This document shows, piece by piece, positions 37,951-63,147 of a stretch of 63,147 bases of DNA. The notes beneath the pieces were generated by a model that saw nothing but the letters and a program-made list of their open reading frames with translations, searched no databases and was not told where the DNA came from. The number at the start of each line of letters is the position of its first letter. Position 1 is the stretch's first letter. A program made the translations under genes and the position numbers. This DNA comes from Candidatus Micrarchaeota archaeon (GTDB lineage: Archaea > Micrarchaeota > Micrarchaeia > Anstonellales > Bilamarchaeaceae): positions 1-63,147 of the forward strand of contig JAHJDH010000012.1 in the NCBI GenBank assembly GCA_018812625.1, read 5' to 3'.

Positions 37951-38382
37951 CTATACTAATTCTTCTGCCTTGAAAATCCTCTCACAGTAATAACATCTGT
38001 AGCTTTCACTTTCTTTTTTGAATTTGTTGGTTGCCTTTTCGCTATTTGTTATGCAGTTAGGGTTTGGGCACTTTCCAGCGTTTTCAAGTTCATCTGGAAG
38101 TTCTACCTTGAATTTATCCGCGACTTTTTCTCCTTTGATAATATTGATTGTAGAGCCTGGAGAAATCAATGCAATAATGTCTGCAGCACTCTTGTCTACT
38201 ATTTTTCCCTCGATTTTTACAATATCTTTTGTTCCTCCTTGTTTGCTTGGAACATGCATCATCAAAGCAACTCTGTGAGGATAATCCTCAACAATGTTTA
38301 GAATCTCAAGAACCTTGTATCCTTTTCCTGGTTTAATGTGGTCAACTACTGTTCCCATTTCAATTGTATCTACTTTGAGCAT
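37951..38382 (-). CDS. pyrI: Aspartate carbamoyltransferase regulatory chain
   Basis: LKVDTIEMGTVVDHI, KDIVKIE, CPNPNCITN...CYYCE Zn site. Confidence 0.95.
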   Translation of the reverse strand: MLKVDTIEMGTVVDHIKPGKGYKVLEILNIVEDYPHRVALMMHVPSKQGGTKDIVKIEGKIVDKSAADIIALISPGSTINIIKGEKVADKFKVELPDELENAGKCPNPNCITNSEKATNKFKKESESYRCYYCERIFKAEELV

Positions 38383-38388
38383 TTCATA

Positions 38389-39276
38389 TCACCTTAGAAT
38401 ATAATCAAGAACTGCTTGCCTTAGCGGAATTCCGTAATGCGCCTGCTCGAAATATTTTGCCTGTGGCATCTCATCAATCGAGCTTTCAATTTCATTTATC
38501 TTTGGAAGTGGGTGCAAAATCACCAAATCTTCTTTTGCATCTTTCAAATCTGCTTTCTTTATTCTGAACTTTTCCATGACGCTTTGTGCTTCATATGGAT
38601 CTGCAAATCTCTCTGCCTGGATTCTGCAAACATAAAGAACATCAGCATCAGAATAATCTGGTTTGTTATCGATCTTTACATTAAGTCCGAATTTGTCATT
38701 TACTTCCTCGAGGTATTTTTTGTCCATCTCAAGACCAGATGGAGAAACCAAGGTTACATTTGCACCAAACATGCCAAGTCCATAAACAAGAGATCTCATT
38801 GTTCTTGCATGCTTCAGGTCTCCAAGAAGAGTGATGTTCAAATCTTTGATTCTTCCCTTTGTTTTCTTTATTGAAAATAAGTCAATCAGTGTTTGGGTTG
38901 GGTGCTGGTTTCCACCGTCTCCGCCATTTACTACTGGTTTTTTTATTACGGTAGATGCAAGCCTGACAGCACCTTCTTTTGGATGTCTGATTGCAAGTGC
39001 ATCTGCATACCCCTCGACTGTTTTCAAAGTGTCTGCAAAACTTTCTCCTTTTTTGAGAGAACTAGTTCCTGGTGAAAAATCCAGTACTTCCATTCCGCAT
39101 CTCATTGCTGCTGACTGGAATGATAATTTGGTTCTTGTCGATGGTTCAAAGAACATCGTTGCAAGTATTTTCCCGTCAAGATCAACCGTTGCTTTGCCGT
39201 TATCGATTTTTTCAGCGTGATCCAAAATCCCTTCAATGTCTTTACTGTCTATGTCTCTGATAGAAATCAGGTTCAT
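38389..39276 (-). CDS. pyrB: Aspartate carbamoyltransferase catalytic chain
   Basis: FFEPSTRTKLSF, KGES, NGGDGGNQHPTQTL, GDLKHART, LHPLP. Confidence 0.97.
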   Translation of the reverse strand: MNLISIRDIDSKDIEGILDHAEKIDNGKATVDLDGKILATMFFEPSTRTKLSFQSAAMRCGMEVLDFSPGTSSLKKGESFADTLKTVEGYADALAIRHPKEGAVRLASTVIKKPVVNGGDGGNQHPTQTLIDLFSIKKTKGRIKDLNITLLGDLKHARTMRSLVYGLGMFGANVTLVSPSGLEMDKKYLEEVNDKFGLNVKIDNKPDYSDADVLYVCRIQAERFADPYEAQSVMEKFRIKKADLKDAKEDLVILHPLPKINEIESSIDEMPQAKYFEQAHYGIPLRQAVLDYILR

Positions 39277-40097: not shown

Positions 40098-41003
40098 TTA
40101 TTTATCAAAATTTGTATATTGTTCTAGTAATTGATTGGCAAGAAATATTGCAAATGGTTTTTCCTCTCCATTATCTGATGCTTCTATTACGTTGTAATAC
40201 TCCTCCTTATTTTGGACACTGATGATTACTGGTGGGAATTTCTTTTTCATTAGTATCCAGTTCATTACAAGTCTTGATGTTCTTCCATTTCCATCTGTAA
40301 ATGGATGTATTTGTACAAAATTATTGTGAAACCAACCGGCTAATTCAACTGGATGTAGTTTCATTTTTATTTTTTTGTATTTGCTAATCATTTTTCCCAT
40401 CTGGTTTTTGACTTCCTTAGCTTTGGGGGGTTTCCATTCAGATCCTCCTATTCGAACTTCTCCATCTCTGTATTTTCCCTGTATCCTACATTTCGTGTTT
40501 TTTGTAACTTCATACTGTAACTTCTGTAGAAACTTTTCATTGAGACTGCCATTGTATTTTTTGATAAAATTCCATGCATCCTTACCATTCATAACTTCTA
40601 TAACATCCTCTGTTTTGGTACCCTGAGGAGCAATATCATCTGATAAAATGAGTGCAGTTTGTCTTAAGCTAAGTGGATTCCCTTCTATTGCATTAGTGTT
40701 ATATGTAAACCGTACGAGGAAGTCTTTTGGGGCCAGATCACTAGGCAAACCTTTGAATATTGTTACAGTAGCATGAAGGTCCTCAATTCTTTCAATTGTT
40801 TCTTTGGGCAACCATTTGGCCGAATATGGTTTTGGTGCTTTTTTTTCAATTTCTTTGAATAATCCCTGTAATTTCTCATGTGGTGGAATTTTTTTACCAA
40901 GAAAAATCCTGACTTTTTTTACAACTGTTGGAGACATTCTTACATTTTTCACTAAGTAGTAATAGAAATTATCTCCGTGCCTTTGTTTTTCTATAAATGA
41001 CAT
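40098..41003 (-). CDS. fic: Fic-domain protein (AMPylase), class II-like with internal inhibitory helix
   Basis: HPFTDGNGRTSR catalytic motif; TNAIEGN matches the (S/T)xxxE(G/N) inhibitory motif. Confidence 0.93.
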   Translation of the reverse strand: MSFIEKQRHGDNFYYYLVKNVRMSPTVVKKVRIFLGKKIPPHEKLQGLFKEIEKKAPKPYSAKWLPKETIERIEDLHATVTIFKGLPSDLAPKDFLVRFTYNTNAIEGNPLSLRQTALILSDDIAPQGTKTEDVIEVMNGKDAWNFIKKYNGSLNEKFLQKLQYEVTKNTKCRIQGKYRDGEVRIGGSEWKPPKAKEVKNQMGKMISKYKKIKMKLHPVELAGWFHNNFVQIHPFTDGNGRTSRLVMNWILMKKKFPPVIISVQNKEEYYNVIEASDNGEEKPFAIFLANQLLEQYTNFDK

Positions 41004-55633: not shown

Positions 55634-55733
55634 ATCAGGGATACGACTGCATTTCTTTTATTTCTTACTTTATGCAGGTATTACTATTGTTTTGGAGCAC
55701 AAAACACAGTTAATTAGATAAAAAAAGAAAAAA

Positions 55734-57554
55734 TTATTCTTCATTCAGGAAAAGAACATCGTCCCATGGATGCCTATATAGCGGAGCTTTCAGTCTCTTT
55801 TGATCAAGCACATGGCCAATAAGTCCTATGCTTCTAGCAAGAACAAAAAGCCCATTCAGATAGCCTATTTCAACAATTTCATCCGTATCCTTTTTGCTGA
55901 AGCATTCACAGCTTGACATCATATCAAGGAACAAAATCCCGATACACCCATCAACATTGAGAATAAGGTTATTTGCTTTTTTGAGTGTTTCTGCCTCAAC
56001 CGAAAGTGCAAAATCAAGATACTTTGTTTCTGGGAAATTCTTCTTTGCATAATCCTTGAGCAGTTCAACTCTCTTGTCTGGGTTCTTTGCACTTTTGATT
56101 CTGTGACCGATTCCAGGAATCCTTTTGTTCTTGTTTTTCATTTCAGCTACAAATTCATCTGCACTAAGTCCCCTGTCGCATGCATCCTTGAAGTATCTTG
56201 CAGCATCATCAATAGCTCCTCCAAATCTTGGTCCAATAGTAAGAAGTCCGCTGGCAACTGATGAAACCAAATCTTTTCCTGCTCTGGAAGCTACTATTGC
56301 ATTGTGCGCTCCAGAAACACATGGCCCGTGTTCTGCTGCAATAATAAGGACCAGTTCAATGAATTTTGAACCGTATCTCGGTATTTTTTTCTTAAACCAA
56401 AGAAGTGAAATCACATCTCCGATTCCAGAATCGTTCTCGATAATTTCACTGATCGGAACCCCGCCATATGTAACTTCCTCCCCACGGTCATCTGAAATTG
56501 TACAAACAAAATTTGATGGTTTTCTGACTATCCCGGCAGATACTGCTGCTTTATAGTCCATTGGAAGCATTGGCGGCTCAACCTCTTTTGCCGGGCTTAT
56601 CGTCCCATCTTTTACAAGTTCCTGATATACTTCTGCGATTTTTTTATCAAGATCCTCAAATGAATTTGGAACAGCAATTCCAGCTTCTGCAAGAGCTTTG
56701 TTCTTTGCTTCTGCAGTTTCAAGCTCTGCTCCGCTTTTAGCTCCTGCATGGCCAAATTGAACATCGCTTGGGAATACCTTTGCACATGTTCCAGTAACCC
56801 ATGCAACCATTGGCTTTTTCAGTTTTCCTTGTTTTTTGGCTTCAACAATTGTGTATTCATCCTTTCCGCCAAGCTCTCCCAGCATTACTATCATTTTTAC
56901 TTCTGGCATTTGTTCAAAGCGAAGGGCATGTTCAAGAAGTGTGCTTCCAGGGTATGCATCTCCTCCAACTGCAATTCCTTCAAAAAGTCCATCTGTTGTC
57001 ATTGCAAGCATGTTGTACATTTCATTAGATAGTCCACCTGATTTTGATACAAATCCAACAGAACCGGGTCTATGCAATTTGCATGCAATAATATTGTCAA
57101 CAGTTCCGGCAGTGTTCCCAATCTTAAATGCCCCTGCCTGAATTCCTCCAACTGTTGCGGGGCCAATAATCATCTTATTTCTCTTCTTTGAGTAATCAAT
57201 CAGCTCACGAGCCATTCTCTCTGGAATTCCCTCAGCAATAATTACCACAGTATTGATAGTGTCCTGTTCCAGTGCCTTTTTTGAAGAATCATAAGCACTT
57301 CTAAATGATGCAAAGTTGATCAGTACATCTGCATCAGTTTGATCTTTACATGCTTCTTCTATTGATGGATAAATTGGCAACAGTATTTCCACTCCTCCGA
57401 AAAATGCCTTGTGAAGTCCTGTGCTTCCAGGGGTAATCAATCCTGCAATGCTGGGTTTTTCTCTTTTGCAAATATAGTCAAAATCAAGCATTCTCTGAAC
57501 TGGGTTTGCCTTGAAATTATATATCAAAGCACGAGTGTCTTTTGTAAATTTCAT
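55734..57554 (-). CDS. aclA: ATP-citrate lyase alpha subunit
   Basis: IAEGIPE, SKSGG, FGHAGA phospho-His, citrate-synthase-like AEHGP, PRFGGA, PGIGHR, LNVDG. Confidence 0.95.
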   Translation of the reverse strand: MKFTKDTRALIYNFKANPVQRMLDFDYICKREKPSIAGLITPGSTGLHKAFFGGVEILLPIYPSIEEACKDQTDADVLINFASFRSAYDSSKKALEQDTINTVVIIAEGIPERMARELIDYSKKRNKMIIGPATVGGIQAGAFKIGNTAGTVDNIIACKLHRPGSVGFVSKSGGLSNEMYNMLAMTTDGLFEGIAVGGDAYPGSTLLEHALRFEQMPEVKMIVMLGELGGKDEYTIVEAKKQGKLKKPMVAWVTGTCAKVFPSDVQFGHAGAKSGAELETAEAKNKALAEAGIAVPNSFEDLDKKIAEVYQELVKDGTISPAKEVEPPMLPMDYKAAVSAGIVRKPSNFVCTISDDRGEEVTYGGVPISEIIENDSGIGDVISLLWFKKKIPRYGSKFIELVLIIAAEHGPCVSGAHNAIVASRAGKDLVSSVASGLLTIGPRFGGAIDDAARYFKDACDRGLSADEFVAEMKNKNKRIPGIGHRIKSAKNPDKRVELLKDYAKKNFPETKYLDFALSVEAETLKKANNLILNVDGCIGILFLDMMSSCECFSKKDTDEIVEIGYLNGLFVLARSIGLIGHVLDQKRLKAPLYRHPWDDVLFLNEE

Positions 57555-57555
57555 A

Positions 57556-58836
57556 TTATGCACCTTTTACATATTCCATGGCCAGCGGAACAATTTTTGT
57601 CATGTGAGTCTCTGGTCCATAAACTTCAATTGGGATACCAAGTTCCTCTCCAAGTGCGCGCATAAGCGCCAAGCCTTTTTGATAATTGGGTCCACCACGC
57701 CTTACATATATCCGAACTCCGGCTTTCTTCATTTTGTCTTTGTATTCTCTTAGAGCCTGGATGATTCCTTTGAATGTTTTTGCAACATCTGTAAAGTTTG
57801 CAATTCCGCCGCCAATAATAAGTGCACGTGGTTTTCCATCTTCATTTCTTGTTGCAAGATCAAGAATGGTTTTTGCATAAAGATATGTTTCTTCAGTATT
57901 TGGATTTCCACTATATTCGCCATAGTTTGCAAGTTCTGCCTCCATTCCAAGATCTACTATTGTATCTGCATAAATTACACTTGCGCCTCCTCCAGCAACC
58001 ATTGTCCAGATTCTTCCTTCTGGATTCAATATGGTGAGCTTTAGTGAAGCGCCGCTTTTGCTATCAAGATCAGATATGAACTGTTCTTCAGGATATAATT
58101 TCCTTCCAAATGGCCTTGGGAATTCAATATCCCCCCACTTTTTTTCTGATTTGTATGCTGCAGTGTCATCAAGCTCTCCCCTCGCATCAAGCGGGAACGG
58201 ATTTCCATCTGCATCATATGTAAATGGGTTGAACTCGAGTAATGTGAAATCAAGTTCCTTGAAAACCTTGTACACAGCTTCAATGAATTCTGCTGTTTTT
58301 ATCTTCTGCTCTGCAGGGATATTTCCAGGAAGTTTTTCTTCAATCTCCTTTGCAGATAATTCTGCTTCTGTTGGAACTTGGAATGTTATAACTTTGTCCC
58401 AATTCTCCTCGATTGCAACCCCACCGGCTGGTGAGAAATTAATCGTATCTTCATTTCGTCCAGGTGTGATCGAAAGGTAGTGCTCCTCTGTATGCTTGAC
58501 AAATGGTTCAACAATAAAATGAGTGATTGCCCCCTTTGCTTTTCCAATTTCTATATCCTGTCCCATTTTTTCTTTGATAAAAGCTTTGGCATCGTTCCAT
58601 GTTCCATCAAGCAAAACAAGTTTGTTTGCACCACGTTTTCCAAACAGCATATCTGGTTTTACAACTAATGATGTTTCTGCTAGCCAGCTATTCTCCTTTA
58701 GTAGTGCTTCCATATCAGTGTTTGGAGATATTTGAGCGCATTTGCCGTTGTACTTCACTTTCCCATTGCTCACTATCTCTAAATATTTTGCAAGCAACTT
58801 TTTCGAATTGAATTCACGAATTTTTCTTCTTGCCAT
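57556..58836 (-). CDS. aclB: ATP-citrate lyase beta subunit
   Basis: ATP-grasp VVKPDMLFGKRG, AGGGASVIYADT, NYGEYSGNP, GGGIANFTDVA, RRGGPNY. Confidence 0.95.
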   Translation of the reverse strand: MARRKIREFNSKKLLAKYLEIVSNGKVKYNGKCAQISPNTDMEALLKENSWLAETSLVVKPDMLFGKRGANKLVLLDGTWNDAKAFIKEKMGQDIEIGKAKGAITHFIVEPFVKHTEEHYLSITPGRNEDTINFSPAGGVAIEENWDKVITFQVPTEAELSAKEIEEKLPGNIPAEQKIKTAEFIEAVYKVFKELDFTLLEFNPFTYDADGNPFPLDARGELDDTAAYKSEKKWGDIEFPRPFGRKLYPEEQFISDLDSKSGASLKLTILNPEGRIWTMVAGGGASVIYADTIVDLGMEAELANYGEYSGNPNTEETYLYAKTILDLATRNEDGKPRALIIGGGIANFTDVAKTFKGIIQALREYKDKMKKAGVRIYVRRGGPNYQKGLALMRALGEELGIPIEVYGPETHMTKIVPLAMEYVKGA

Positions 58837-58841
58837 AAAAT

Positions 58842-60062
58842 TCACATGTTCTTGATTATTTCGTCTCCAAACTCAGAGCATTTGAGGAGTGTTGCTCCAT
58901 CGATCTGTCTCTCAAGATCATAGGTTACTCTCTTTGAGCTGATTGCTTTTTCAATGCCTTTTTCAACAAGCTTTGATGCTTCTTCCCATCCAAGATATTG
59001 AAGCATCATAGATGCAGATAAGATTAATGATCCTGGGTTGACCTTATCAAGTCCTGCATGCTTTGGTGCAGTTCCATGAGTTGCCTCAAAGAGAGCAACA
59101 CCAGTAGTATAATTGATGTTAGCTCCTGGAGCCATGCCAAGGCCTCCAACTTGTGCAGCGCATGCATCTGATATATAGTCCCCGTTCAGGTTAGGTGTTG
59201 CAAGTATATCATACTCATCAGGTCGAAGGAGGATCTGCTGGAACATTGCATCTGCAATTCTGTCATTTATGAGTATCTTTCCTTCAGGGATCTTGCCGTC
59301 ATAATTTTCTGCAACTTCTTTTTCAGTTATTGTCTTGTCTCCAAATTGCTCTTTTGCAACCTGGTAACCCCATTCCCTGAAAGCACCTTCAGTAAACTTC
59401 ATGATGTTTCCTTTGTGAACAAGTGTTACTGATCTTCTCTTGTGATCAATTGCATATTGGATGGCTGAAGCGACAAGCCTTTTTGTTCCAGTAATTGAGA
59501 TTGGCTTAACACCGATTCCAGAATCCTCGCGAACGTGCTTTCCCATTTCATTATTAAGGAAGTTGATTACTTTTTTGGCATCGTCAGTGCCTTCTTTCCA
59601 TTCAATTCCTGCATAAACATCTTCAGTATTCTCTCTGAAGACAATAACATCAAGCTTGTTGGGTTCTTTCACAGGCGCAGGAGTTCCTTCAAACCATCGA
59701 ACAGGCCTGACACATGAGTACAGTTCCATAACCTGGCGCATTGTTACGTTTAGGCTTCTGATTCCTCCACCAACAGGAGTTGTAAGAGGCCCTTTGATTG
59801 CTACTAAATGATCTTTGATTGCTTGGATTGTCTCATCTGGTAGGTAGTTGTCAACACTCTTCTTTGCCTCTTCACCTGCAAGAATCTTTTTCCAGACTAT
59901 TCTCTTCTTGCCTCCATATGCCTTTTCTACAGCCGCATCAACGACCTTGCGCATAACTGGCGAAATATCGACTCCAACACCATCTCCATCGATGTGTGGT
60001 ATAATTGGCATATCCGGTACTACAAGTTTCCCATCTTTCATTTCGATTTTTGTTCCTTCCAT
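58842..60062 (-). CDS. icd: Isocitrate dehydrogenase (NADP, E. coli-type)
   Basis: [49 protein letters not shown]. Confidence 0.96.
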
Positions 60063-60070
60063 GTTTTCAC

Positions 60071-61978
60071 CTATTTAGCATACATTATACTTCCACCAGC
60101 AAGAAGCACGTCTTTTGATTTTTCTCCAAGCTCGCAAAGTGCAACAAATTCATTTCCTTTTGTTTTATTCAAAACCTTTACTTTTCCATTTTTTATTCCA
60201 TCTCGAAGATTTTCTAAAACTAGTACATCTCCTTGATCCACATTGTCATAGTCCTCTGGTTTTTCAAACTCAAGAGGAACAATTCCCCAATTCACAAGAT
60301 TTGCCTTGTGAATTCTGGCAAAGTTCTTTGCAATTACTGCCTTGAGGCCAAGATAAAGCGGAGCAATTGCAGCATGTTCTCTTGAAGAACCCTGTCCATA
60401 ATTTTCTCCACCAATTATGAATCCTCCATGTTTTTCCTTTGCTCTCTTTGGGAATTCCGGATCAACATTCACATACACAAATTCACTAATTGCAGGAATA
60501 TTGCTTCGAAGGGGAAGTATCTTTGCTCCAGCTGGCATAATATGGTCTGTTGTAATATTATCTCCTGTCTTTAGCAAAACTTCCTTTTCAATCCTGTCTT
60601 CAACTGCCTTTAGATCCGGAAGCGGTGCAATATTAGGTCCTCGGACAATTTCAATATTTGATCCATCTTCTGGCGGTCTGATGATCATTCCATCATCAAT
60701 TACTGGGCTGGCTGCAGGAATTTCTACAGCATCTCCCAGTTTTCTTGGATCTGTGAATACTCCATTCAGTGCAATTGCAGCTGCTGTTTCTGGCGAAACA
60801 AGATATGCTTCAGCATCTTGCGTTCCGCATCTTCCTTTGAAGTTTCTGTTGAATGTTCTGACTGTGATCGCACCGCTTCTTGGTGCCTGGCCCATACCAA
60901 TGCAAGGCCCGCAAGCAGACTCAAGGATTCTGGCTCCAGAAGAAATAAGATCTGCAAGAGCTCCATTTCTTGCAATTGTTTCATAAACTTGTCTTGAGCC
61001 TGGAAGTACGCAAAATGAAATTCCTGGGTGCACTTTTCTTCCTTTTAGTGCAAGTGCAACTGTCATAAGATCTCTATATGATGAATTAGTACAGCTTCCA
61101 ACAATTACCTGATTTACTTTCTTTCCTTCAAGCTCTGTTACTTTGCAAACCTGGTCTGGCATATGTGGCTTTGCAACATTCGGCTCGATTTTTGAGAGGT
61201 CCAGCTCAATAATTTCTGCAAAGTCTGCTTCTGAATCTGCTTTAAGCTCAACATAATCAGATTCTCTCTTTTGCATTTTCAAATATTCTCTTGTTTTATC
61301 ATCTGATGGGAATACCGATGTAGTCGCCCCAAGTTCCGCTCCCATATTCGTGATGGTTGCACGCTCAGGAACGCTTAATGTTGGGACTCCATCTCCGAAA
61401 TATTCGAATACTTTTCCAACTCCTCCTTTGACCTTGAGCATATTCAAAAGTTCTAGTATTACGTCTTTTGCACTAACCCATGGCTGAAGTTTTCCACTGA
61501 GTTTCACTCCAATAATCTTTGGAGTATTGAAAGTAAATGGAGCGCCTCCCATTGCAAGGGCAACATCAAGACCTCCTGCTCCCATGGCAAGAGAACCTAC
61601 CCCTCCAGCAGTTGGGGTATGAGAATCAGAGCCCAGAAGGGTTTTTCCCGGTGCTGCAAATCGCTCAAGATGCACCTGATGACAAATTCCATTTCCAGGC
61701 CTTGAGAATAAAACTCCAAATTTTGCTGCAACGCTTTTCAGGTAATCATGATCATCTGCATTTCTAAAGTCTGTCTGAAGCATATTATGGTCAACATAAC
61801 TGACTGAAAGTTCTGTTTTTACTCTAGGAACTCCAAGCGCTTCAAATTCCAGGTATGCCATGGTGCCAGTTGCATCCTGGGTCAGTGTTTGGTCGATTTT
61901 TATTGAGATTTCTTTGCCAGATTCTAATTCACCTTCCTTCAAATGTTCCTTTAATATTTTTTCAGTTACACTTGCCAT
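60071..61978 (-). CDS. acn: Aconitate hydratase
   Basis: [46 protein letters not shown]. Confidence 0.94.
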
Positions 61979-62133
61979 CAAAATCACTTTGAAAACTAGA
62001 ACTTCGTATCCCTAGTAGCCCTTATAAAAGGCTTCTTTCTGCCTGAAAAAGTACGGCAATTGCAGAATTTTGCCATATTCGAAACGCATGCTTATATCCT
62101 TCTATGATCAAAACTAATATAGGGTGGTAAATT

Positions 62134-62607
62134 ATGAAAACGCTAATTGTTTATGTCTCTGAGCATAAGAAAAATACTGAAAAAATAGCAAAAGCTTTTG
62201 CCGAAGTTATTGATGCTGATTTAATCAAGCCAATTTCATGTGAGCTAAATTCTTTTGACAATTACGATCTTGTTGGTTTTGGGTCTGGAATCTATCATTC
62301 AAAATTTCATGCTTCTCTATACAGATTACTTGATCATTGCAGTCCAATCAAAGGGAAGAAGGCATTTATCTTCTCAACAAGCGGACACCCTGAGCACAAG
62401 CATCTAAACAACTATAACAAAGAACTTGAAGCAAAACTTGTTTCTTTGGGCTTTACTGTTATCGGAAACTTTTCCTGCCGCGGCCATGATGCTTGGGGTC
62501 CTCTTCGATTGGTTGGAGGAATCAACCAGAACAAGCCTGATTCTACTGATATTGAGAATGCAAAACAATTTGCTAAAAACCTCAAAAGTAAATTTTCTGA
62601 TATCTGA
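62134..62607 (+). CDS. Flavodoxin family protein
   Basis: YVSEHKKNTEKIA, GFGSGIY, FSTSG, FSCRG. Confidence 0.88.
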   Translation: MKTLIVYVSEHKKNTEKIAKAFAEVIDADLIKPISCELNSFDNYDLVGFGSGIYHSKFHASLYRLLDHCSPIKGKKAFIFSTSGHPEHKHLNNYNKELEAKLVSLGFTVIGNFSCRGHDAWGPLRLVGGINQNKPDSTDIENAKQFAKNLKSKFSDI

Positions 62608-62693
62608 TTTTTCAATAAAATCGCTAGTGCATTTTTTTCCAAATTCTGCACTCTTTCAATTGATTTATATCTTCCTCGATCCTCTCTCTTCTT

Positions 62694-63147
62694 ATGGAGC
62701 TAAAAAACCTCAGAAAATTCTTCTGGATTTTAATTCCGATTATTGCAATTGGCGGAATGTTCTACCCCCTTCTTGGACTTCTTATGGCCCCAATGATGAT
62801 TGCTTTACTTATAATTTCATATTCCAAAGCAAGATATTGGTGTGCCAATATCTGCCCCCGCGGAAGCTTTCTTGACCTTATAATTCGTCCTTTATCTGGT
62901 TTTGGAAAATCTCCAGGATTTCTAAATTCAAAATTATTTCGCTATGTTTTCATGATTTTGTTTCTAGTGCTATTCATCTACAGGATTACTACTGCAGCTC
63001 TGGAAGTTGAAGCATGGATTCTACTTGAAAAAATCGGATTTGTATTTGCCAGCATTTGTCTTATAACAACTGTTGCAGCAACTATCCTTGGGTTTTTTTA
63101 CTCTCCAAGAACGTGGTGCACGTTTTGTCCTATGGGGACGTTGCAGA
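62694..63147 (+). CDS. Membrane 4Fe-4S-binding (NosR/YccM-type CxxxCP) protein, truncated by window end (not in ORF track)
   Basis: Manual translation MELKNLRKFFWILIPII...RYWCANICPRGSFLD...PRTWCTFCPMGTLQ. Confidence 0.85.
   Translation, partial: MELKNLRKFFWILIPIIAIGGMFYPLLGLLMAPMMIALLIISYSKARYWCANICPRGSFLDLIIRPLSGFGKSPGFLNSKLFRYVFMILFLVLFIYRITTAALEVEAWILLEKIGFVFASICLITTVAATILGFFYSPRTWCTFCPMGTLQ

Follow-up and report, generated by a model that had tools for sequence, protein, structure and literature searches.

The structures of the heteromeric ATP-citrate lyase (ACL) of Methanothrix (Methanosaeta) concilii, built from ACLY-A and ACLY-B, are available as PDB 6HXI and 6ZNW (Verschueren et al. 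2019, as cited in PMC11237513). In the anaerobic methanotrophic archaea ANME-1 and ANME-2c, ACL, aconitase and isocitrate dehydrogenase (IDH) make up a partial oxidative tricarboxylic acid (TCA) cycle that has no citrate synthase, and a role in 2-oxoglutarate supply was proposed for it (PMC9012536); in Desulfobacter postgatei, ACL was described as citrate-forming and ATP-yielding in the citric acid cycle (Moeller et al. 1987, as cited in PMC9768450). Among DPANN archaea, genes for ACL, citryl-CoA synthetase (CCS) and citryl-CoA lyase (CCL) were noted in vent genomes (PMC8091004), Micrarchaeota were listed among the taxa with citrate-cleavage genes (10.1101/2022.10.25.513756), and the cultured acidophilic ARMAN archaea were found to have citrate synthase and no ACL (PMC5468238). 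Eukaryotic ACLA/B was reported to branch with DPANN sequences (PMC11976288). Here, a four-gene operon, acn-icd-aclB-aclA, is described, which encodes ACL together with aconitase (Acn) and IDH (Icd) and lies on a contig of 63,147 nt (JAHJDH010000012.1 of assembly GCA_018812625.1; this whole stretch is called the window) from a Candidatus Micrarchaeota genome.

The enzyme type, the gene order and the DPANN occurrence are already on record, and the cassette is an ordinary arrangement. The analysis indicates that it very probably forms a genuine and native ACL-Acn-IDH node, which is neither cyclic nor autotrophic. The fuller statement, i.e., that such a node exists and that its net flux runs towards citrate cleavage, is judged only a little more probable than its negation.

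The acn-icd-aclB-aclA operon

The operon consists of four minus-strand open reading frames (ORFs) at positions 55734-61978 of the window, which are all co-directional, leave space for no further gene and are separated by gaps of 8, 5 and 1 nt, the start codons being backed by alignment to solved structures. The genes and their flanking signals are as follows.

60071-61978, minus strand: acn, aconitate hydratase, 635 aa from the ATG at 61978 (alternative upstream GTG start at 61987)
58842-60062, minus strand: icd, isocitrate dehydrogenase of the homodimeric type, probably NADP-dependent, 406 aa
57556-58836, minus strand: aclB, ATP-citrate lyase small subunit with ATP-grasp and citrate-binding domains, 426 aa, ATG at 58836
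55734-57554, minus strand: aclA, ATP-citrate lyase large subunit with a CoA-binding/CoA-ligase part carrying the phospho-His and a citryl-CoA lyase module, 606 aa, ATG at 57554
62022-62029, minus strand: TATA-box-like TTTTATAA, putative archaeal promoter about 45 nt upstream of the acn ATG, as read from the sequence
55717-55733, minus strand: T-rich tract TTTTTTTCTTTTTTTAT right behind the aclA stop codon TAA, likely archaeal terminator, as read from the sequence

AclB matched two Pfam families, PF24948 (Citrate_synth_N, 242 bits), which is read as the ATP-grasp domain, and PF16114 (Citrate_bind, 293 bits), which is read as the citrate-binding domain, and it aligned end to end with M. concilii ACLY-A (6HXI_A; 503 bits, residues 4-424). 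In AclA, searched as a single ORF of 609 aa, PF00549 (Ligase_CoA) was located at residues 172-295 and the C-terminal half of PF00285 (Citrate_synt, profile positions 167-353) at residues 399-595, so that the CoA-ligase part and the citryl-CoA lyase module are both carried on one chain, unlike the split arrangement of CCS plus CCL. The alignment with M. concilii ACLY-B (6HXI_B) covered residues 6-606 with 830 bits and 59% identity, and human ACLY was matched with 767 bits; the Chlorobium limicola enzyme (6HXJ) was only distant, with 410 bits for AclA (6HXJ_B) and 166 bits for AclB. AclA contains the phospho-His loop QFGHAGAK and, in LNVDGCIG, the lyase aspartate; H272 and D538, the respective residues, are invariant across 82 homologues, and D538 corresponds to the position changed to alanine in the 6ZNW mutant. 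By every sequence-level criterion examined, AclBA is a genuine heteromeric ACL (EC 2.3.3.8) of the Methanothrix/eukaryote type.

The two partner enzymes were identified in the same manner. Acn scored 977 bits against the NCBIfam model NF005558 for aconitate hydratase (cut-off 612) and also matched the Pfam families Aconitase and Aconitase_C; its alignment with mitochondrial aconitase (1ACO, 358 bits) kept the Fe-S cysteines as well as the catalytic His, Asp, Ser and Arg residues. The motifs GSCTNSS and ACGPCIG, with the three Fe-S cysteines of the 4Fe-4S cluster, are found along with DSHTP and GSSREH, and the protein is predicted to be an aconitate hydratase of the PRK07229 type. Icd scored 669 bits against TIGR00183 for NADP-dependent IDH (cut-off 567), 554 bits against 5M2E and 545 bits against the E. 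coli enzyme. The Ser, Tyr, Lys and Asp residues of its active-site motifs, including NLNGDY, are conserved relative to 5M2E; at the site for the 2'-phosphate the lysine is retained and the adjacent tyrosine replaced by histidine, and the cofactor is probably NADP.

All four reading frames are open and every catalytic motif is intact. The TTTTATAA box and the T-tract would fit a single archaeal transcription unit for the four genes; a scan with sigma-70 and other bacterial consensus patterns, which do not apply to archaea, gave no more promoter or terminator matches than chance. The initial annotation had described four contiguous genes with intact motifs and gaps of 1-8 bp, forming an operon in a DPANN archaeon, and its gene identities, gene arrangement and host were all confirmed by the family scans, the structure alignments, the measured gaps and the nearest loci, which are all from Micrarchaeota.

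The neighbours of the operon encode an M20 peptidase, a DUF424 protein, an ACT-domain protein, an NFACT protein, a flavodoxin and a 4Fe-4S (Fer4) protein. The last two lie on the plus strand (62134-63146), divergent from the acn promoter region; the first has a flavodoxin domain, and the gene of the second, the 4Fe-4S protein (Fer4_5), is cut off by the contig end. The pair may be linked to aconitase, itself an Fe-S enzyme, or to enzymes that depend on ferredoxin. Farther away in the window, a Fic/DOC-family protein (PF02661, 76 bits; 40098-41003, minus strand) is encoded between the pyrBI genes and unannotated ORFs.

Metabolic inventory of the genome

The assembly (designated G000), of which the window is contig C35, comprises 1.27 Mb in 43 contigs with 39% GC and is estimated to be 85% complete and 1.3% contaminated. 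All ORFs of the genome were searched with proteins from E. coli and from the relatives described below, whereby the E. coli queries were run with phmmer on all ORFs and with tblastn on the raw genome; candidates were confirmed by NCBIfam and Pfam, and whole-genome family scans were added. No full-length PF00285 protein, as expected for a Si-type citrate synthase, was found in the genome, PF00285 and E. coli GltA matching AclA only. Fumarate reductase (SdhA/FrdA) was found neither by phmmer nor by tblastn or PF00890, the SucC/SucD queries for succinyl-CoA synthetase matched only AclB/AclA, and the E. coli queries SucA (2-oxoglutarate dehydrogenase) and FumA (class I fumarase) were without a match. 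Bacterial-type Ppc, pyruvate kinase and class I aspartate aminotransferase were likewise not found in the genome. Since citrate synthase, SdhA/FrdA, succinyl-CoA synthetase and 2-oxoglutarate dehydrogenase were not found, there is no TCA cycle here: the ACL-Acn-IDH set is a stand-alone, non-cyclic citrate node, which belongs to neither an oxidative nor a reductive TCA cycle and gives no pointer to autotrophy. The operon is also the only encoded connection between the pool of acetyl-CoA and oxaloacetate and the pool of 2-oxoglutarate and glutamate.

One LeuA-like protein, the only such match in the genome, is encoded at C9:1226-2950. It is a fusion of 574 aa in which a TIM barrel of the HMGL-like aldolase/synthase type is followed by a weak MptE-like (DUF115) C-terminal domain, and it is atypical for a Re-type citrate synthase.

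Enzymes that could feed or drain the node are well represented. A 2-oxoacid:ferredoxin oxidoreductase (OFOR) with alpha and beta subunits is encoded at C38:25805-28492 (TIGR03710, 632 bits; NF008820, 414 bits), its substrate being unreadable from the sequence. Glutamate dehydrogenase (GDH) is found at C13:2994-4217, ATP-dependent phosphoenolpyruvate carboxykinase (PEPCK) at C7:40719-42221, and the alpha and beta parts of an ADP-forming acetyl-CoA synthetase (ACD) at C7:26630-28649. Archaeal phosphoenolpyruvate carboxylase (PEPC), directly followed by malic enzyme, is encoded at C3:28795-31404 and an aspartase/fumarase-family lyase at C3:32863-34260. Taken together, C3:28795-34260 is a compact C3/C4 cluster, in which the archaeal-type PEPC and a short malic enzyme are accompanied by the lyase on the opposite strand, the latter in an apparent operon with two small multi-transmembrane proteins, one of them with a Yip1 domain; the cluster may be a unit for aspartate, fumarate and malate handling with its own membrane component. 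HMG-CoA reductase (HMGR), thiolase and HMG-CoA synthase (HMGCS) represent acetyl-CoA sinks for isoprenoids, and the genome further encodes DUF35, phosphoenolpyruvate synthase (PpsA), enolase, PGK, GAPDH and two GlnA-family proteins. The combination of phosphoenolpyruvate synthase and PEPCK without pyruvate kinase suggests a gluconeogenic layout. A membrane-bound, H+-translocating pyrophosphatase at C36:2938-4935 (PF03030, 887 bits) is a possible energy-conserving device.

Among the neighbours of the operon there is no citrate transporter. A scan of 30 multi-transmembrane proteins of the genome yielded one tricarboxylate-type candidate, a protein of the TctA family (C33:2372-3532), which is present in 22 of the 30 related genomes irrespective of ACL. 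As the large subunit of a tripartite tricarboxylate transporter it stands alone, and no TctB or TctC was noticed nearby.

Comparison with related genomes

The comparison set consisted of 30 related Micrarchaeota genomes, all of them metagenome-assembled genomes (MAGs) that are 85-97% complete, most of them around 90%. A full-length citrate synthase is absent from all 30, the PF00285 matches being C-termini of AclA or short CCL-like proteins; given that most of the genomes are about 90% complete, the absence is a property of the lineage and no gap of a single bin. Of the 15 ACL-positive genomes in the sample, 11, belonging to four GTDB families, have the cassette in synteny. Aconitase and IDH travel with ACL, and ACL-negative genomes are without both, apart from one LeuCD/LeuB-like pair. 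ACL, Acn and IDH are gained and lost as a unit.

Four genomes (G045, G137, G149 and G176) have aclBA and no Acn or Icd anywhere, and in three of them the contig runs well past the position at which acn and icd would be expected. Without these enzymes citrate could there only be an imported substrate, and ACL must cleave it. PEPC is absent from all four, a weak pattern and the sole one that emerged from the co-occurrence tests. In G137, ACL is placed between an HMGCS-thiolase-DUF35 operon and ACD alpha/beta, and in G149 it adjoins a class I/II aminotransferase. The G137 region (C1:482-10453, locus L154) resembles an “acetyl-CoA island”, with the genes for an HMGCS-like protein, thiolase and DUF35 on one strand and aclA, aclB, a protein of the Fe-S assembly type, ACD alpha and ACD beta on the other.

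Most other functions did not discriminate between genomes with and without ACL. All 30 genomes have HMGR, nearly all have GDH-family and ACD genes, 23 have OFOR, the presence of which bears no relation to ACL, and about a third have SdhA-type genes, with or without ACL. Four genomes carrying the cassette (G126, G146, G148 and G195) have no oxidoreductase of the POR_N type. Genomes of the same genus that have no ACL retain OFOR, PEPC, ACD and HMGR; as they keep the first three, the cassette is not needed there for the supply of acetyl-CoA or oxaloacetate. Two classes of ELFV-family dehydrogenases were distinguished: GdhA_Arch-like proteins of about 405-440 aa (about 230-257 bits) were found only in the ACL-positive G000, G059, G089, G195 and G149, and a second class of about 370-390 aa (about 180-200 bits) in nearly all other genomes. 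Two genomes of the same taxonomic class as the window, G077 and G193, have split CCS/CCL, i.e., a short citryl-CoA lyase of 256-262 aa beside a Citrate_bind protein, instead of the fused AclA, so both citrate-cleavage architectures occur within Micrarchaeia.

Distribution and inheritance of the cassette

The host belongs to the Micrarchaeota (NCBI phylum Microcaldota, kingdom Nanobdellati, i.e., DPANN), and the archaeon is probably symbiotic. The nearest AclA loci are all from Candidatus Micrarchaeota MAGs (98, 94, 80 and 80% AclA identity), and some related ACL loci carry the label Bilamarchaeaceae (a family within Microcaldota). A pattern scan of public genomes, with one genome per species, found this type of ACL in at least 575 genomes, often beside aconitase; the best 80 of these include about 20 Micrarchaeota together with Thermoplasmatota, Methanotrichaceae, Bathyarchaeia, Asgard archaea, Aenigmatarchaeota and several bacterial phyla. 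For this type, the statement in the initial annotation that ACL is uncommon in archaea is therefore outdated. Of 20 public Micrarchaeota loci, about 14 show the order acn-icd-aclB-aclA, which is shared by two bacteria, one of the Anaerolineae and one of TA06; acn-aclB-aclA is common in Thermoplasmatota, Elusimicrobiota and others.

A maximum-likelihood tree of AclA was computed by a quick search under the LG+G4 model, with eukaryotic sequences left out. Its 20 rows of the Micrarchaeota lineage (18 labelled Micrarchaeota, the window and one record of an “uncultured archaeon”) form one clade; its SH-aLRT support is 93 overall and 99 in the core. Nearest to it are an Aenigmatarchaeote and a pair of Asgard sequences, the latter grouping with a single row of Desulfuromonadaceae, followed by Thermoplasmatota and Bathyarchaeia. 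An ACL phylogeny had been recommended as a means to find the donor; no donor lineage could be named from this tree. Within the phylum, 18 of 201 genomes have ACL, and within the genus 5 of 12 do, a patchiness that, given the single clade, is mainly due to repeated loss. G180, of the same genus as the window, has (at locus L052) an AclA from another Micrarchaeota subclade, and G134 (locus L045), of a different genus, groups with the window; these placements hint that the cassette may have been exchanged within the phylum or that the genus is broadly defined.

Both the patchy occurrence and the divergent AclA of G180, which hints at within-phylum exchange, might be taken to mean that the cassette is foreign to this organism, either through a mis-binned contig or through very recent horizontal acquisition, or else that it is inactive. 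Such an explanation is highly improbable. The window contig bears giant proteins specific to the lineage and, over 17.8 kb that include the flanks of the cassette, is collinear with a 285-kb Micrarchaeota contig (L002) at about 93% nucleotide identity. The GC content of the cassette (0.40-0.42) and its GC content at third codon positions (0.26-0.34) are typical of the genome, for which the means are 0.394 +/- 0.023 and 0.305 +/- 0.04. Recent horizontal transfer and mis-binning are rejected because of this collinearity, the base composition and the AclA phylogeny, and the open frames with all catalytic residues in place argue against inactivity. Judged from these comparisons, the cassette is native, was inherited vertically within Micrarchaeota and was lost repeatedly.

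Direction of flux

The direction in which the node works is not settled by its sequence; citrate cleavage is slightly favored, and ATP-forming citrate synthesis is a close rival. In the cleavage direction, ACL would convert citrate, ATP and CoA into acetyl-CoA and oxaloacetate. The acetyl-CoA would enter the mevalonate pathway for isoprenoid lipids or be used by ACD to form acetate and ATP, and the oxaloacetate would be passed to gluconeogenesis via PEPCK or, via aspartate, to pyrBI. The cross-references of the initial annotation to GGR (156-1523) and pyrB/pyrI (37951-39276) agree with this picture, both loci lying within the window and the genome having HMGR, thiolase and HMGCS. The citrate might be imported from the host or the environment and cleaved, and in parallel be oxidized to 2-oxoglutarate and NADPH; the Acn/IDH arm could also run forward from imported citrate to 2-oxoglutarate and NADPH and on to glutamate. 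Alternatively, glutamate could be converted by GDH to 2-oxoglutarate, by a reversed IDH to isocitrate and by aconitase to citrate, which would then yield acetyl-CoA and oxaloacetate, a route that would involve no net redox change if both GDH and IDH work with NADP(H), and that would be pulled by the ACL step. This reductive carboxylation of scavenged glutamate was what the initial annotation had proposed; it is possible, GDH being present, but nothing in the sequence favors it over import and cleavage of citrate or over citrate synthesis. The arrangement that would have spoken against that proposal, a complete oxidative TCA cycle with citrate synthase and no entry for glutamate, is not what the genome presents, in which citrate synthase was not found and GDH was; the genome check suggested there turned up GDH and one OFOR, and no citrate synthase, fumarate reductase or ACL-linked citrate transporter. 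Taken together, the import route and the glutamate route have an even chance, perhaps a shade better, because of the ACL-only relatives, the gene neighborhoods of their ACL and the ordinary thermodynamics at normal energy charge. With a normal energy charge and micromolar oxaloacetate, citrate cleavage is the downhill direction. In vivo the node is probably reversible, because ACL catalyzes a near-equilibrium reaction.

The strongest competitor, less probable and still to be taken seriously, is that ACL replaces citrate synthase, conserving ATP, in a short oxidative and biosynthetic branch. Acetyl-CoA (from pyruvate via OFOR, or via ACD) and oxaloacetate (from phosphoenolpyruvate via PEPC) would react with ADP and phosphate to give citrate, ATP and CoA, after which Acn and IDH would yield 2-oxoglutarate and NADPH, and GDH and glutamine synthetase would yield glutamate and glutamine. 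Citrate synthase is indeed absent from the genome and its 30 relatives, the cassette comprises exactly the three steps of the oxidative branch, presumably co-transcribed, and dedicated sources of its substrates are present in OFOR, ACD and the irreversible archaeal PEPC, as are GDH and the two GlnA-family genes. As genomes of the same genus without the cassette keep OFOR, PEPC and ACD, the contribution of the cassette would then be autonomy for glutamate, and the GdhA_Arch-type GDH (about 250 bits) is confined to ACL-positive genomes of the sample; there are also published precedents in ANME archaea (PMC9012536) and, as cited in PMC9768450, in D. postgatei (Moeller et al. 1987). However, the reaction in this direction requires a high oxaloacetate-to-citrate ratio and a low ATP/ADP ratio, conditions called “not typical” by the authors of PMC9012536; it leaves the four ACL-only relatives without aconitase or IDH unexplained, and it fits poorly with G126 and G146, which carry the cassette and have neither POR_N nor PEPC. 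Far less credible than either direction of a stand-alone node is a complete reductive TCA cycle, of which the cassette would be the citrate-cleaving arm, in an organism that is at least facultatively autotrophic. In its favor, the genome encodes ACL, aconitase, IDH and one 2-oxoacid:ferredoxin oxidoreductase, a preprint places Micrarchaeota among the taxa “theoretically capable of complete rTCA” (10.1101/2022.10.25.513756), and five genomes with the cassette (G018, G116, G126, G146 and G195) have an SdhA/FrdA-type gene. No SdhA/FrdA, succinyl-CoA synthetase, class I fumarase or malate dehydrogenase was found in this genome, though, the closest ACL-positive relatives of the same genus (G059, G089 and G180) are also without an SdhA-type gene, and the genome is of the DPANN type with 1.27 Mb. 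For this genome, autotrophy by the complete reductive cycle is close to excluded, with fumarate reductase and succinyl-CoA synthetase not found, and the remark in the initial annotation that autotrophy is not implied holds good.

Several points weigh against a non-cyclic node that cleaves citrate. At 85% completeness, absences in this genome alone are no proof, and the failure to find malate dehydrogenase with a partial E. coli Mdh query and a motif search was a weak test, in which Ldh_2-type enzymes were not searched. The protein at C9:1226-2950 is formally a gap in the inventory, where an identity as Re-citrate synthase is disfavored by the fusion to the MptE-like domain, which argues against it. 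No citrate carrier linked to ACL was found, since the TctA-family candidate shows no co-variation with it. The genomes that display the ACL-only pattern are others than this one, MAGs of 88-94% completeness, and the slight preference for the cleavage direction is drawn from comparative genomics and general thermodynamics. Finally, ACL is not needed as a supplier, acetyl-CoA being made otherwise by OFOR and ACD and oxaloacetate by PEPC, and the contribution of the cassette could equally be the de novo synthesis of 2-oxoglutarate and glutamate.

A more specific proposal within the cleavage reading, and a speculative one, is that the cassette serves as a salvage hub for host-derived citrate or glutamate and is the prokaryotic counterpart of the cytosolic ACLY-ACO1-IDH1 trio. 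Citrate would be split to acetyl-CoA for lipids and to oxaloacetate for aspartate and gluconeogenesis, and would also be oxidized to 2-oxoglutarate and NADPH; in another variant, carbon from glutamate would return to citrate by carboxylation while GDH and IDH turn over a common NADP(H) pool. The premise would be that ACL is the sole enzyme that makes or breaks citrate in this Micrarchaeota lineage.

Significance

For metabolic reconstruction of Micrarchaeota, the results mean that the annotation of a “TCA gene” in this lineage does not imply a cycle. What is added here is the absence of citrate synthase across the sampled clade, the gain and loss of the cassette as a unit, and the existence of ACL-only genomes in which ACL lies beside genes of acetyl-CoA metabolism. 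If the cleavage reading is true, citrate or glutamate would be candidate host-derived metabolites, which would be useful for the design of co-culture media; if ACL forms ATP, a heterotrophic case would be added to those of ANME and Desulfobacter in which ACL acts as citrate synthase. Should the salvage hub be real, and the reported sister position of DPANN and eukaryotic ACL (PMC11976288) hold, these symbionts would be a living model for a pre-eukaryotic role of ACL. A new class of system it is not: the structures are solved, the gene order recurs across phyla, and DPANN ACL has appeared in several papers.

Comparison with known systems

With the M. concilii enzyme, the ACL of the window shares the two-subunit architecture, an end-to-end alignment, the same phospho-His loop and the lyase aspartate. 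It differs in its host, a reduced DPANN archaeon and no methanogen. The genomic setting differs as well: aclBA here stands behind acn-icd in one operon, whereas loci of the Methanotrichaceae have aclB-aclA and then a distant LeuC-like gene. The ACL-type reductive TCA cycle of Chlorobium, Campylobacterota and Nitrospira uses the same reaction, the same subunit organization and the same association with aconitase and IDH, but the Chlorobium-type sequences are distant, and since fumarate reductase and succinyl-CoA synthetase were not found here, there is no cycle.

In eukaryotes, ACLY, ACO1 and IDH1 are cytosolic, and in mammalian cells carbon can flow reductively from glutamine to lipids. As in that system, the three activities of the operon stand outside any cycle and link citrate, acetyl-CoA for lipids, and 2-oxoglutarate with NADPH. 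The likeness is purely one of function.

If the node runs in the synthetic direction, ACL would take the place of citrate synthase as in D. postgatei, where it works within a complete oxidative cycle by which acetate is oxidized, unlike here, where the rest of the cycle is missing. The operon would function in the manner of the ACL-Acn-IDH sets known from other anaerobic archaea. ANME-1 and ANME-2c have the same set of three enzymes, no citrate synthase and no complete cycle. In those archaea, however, acetyl-CoA comes from C1 metabolism and the synthetic direction is the only sensible one, whereas the archaeon described here is a heterotroph with OFOR, ACD, PEPC and GDH; with this heterotrophy and with its ACL-only relatives, citrate cleavage is at least as likely.

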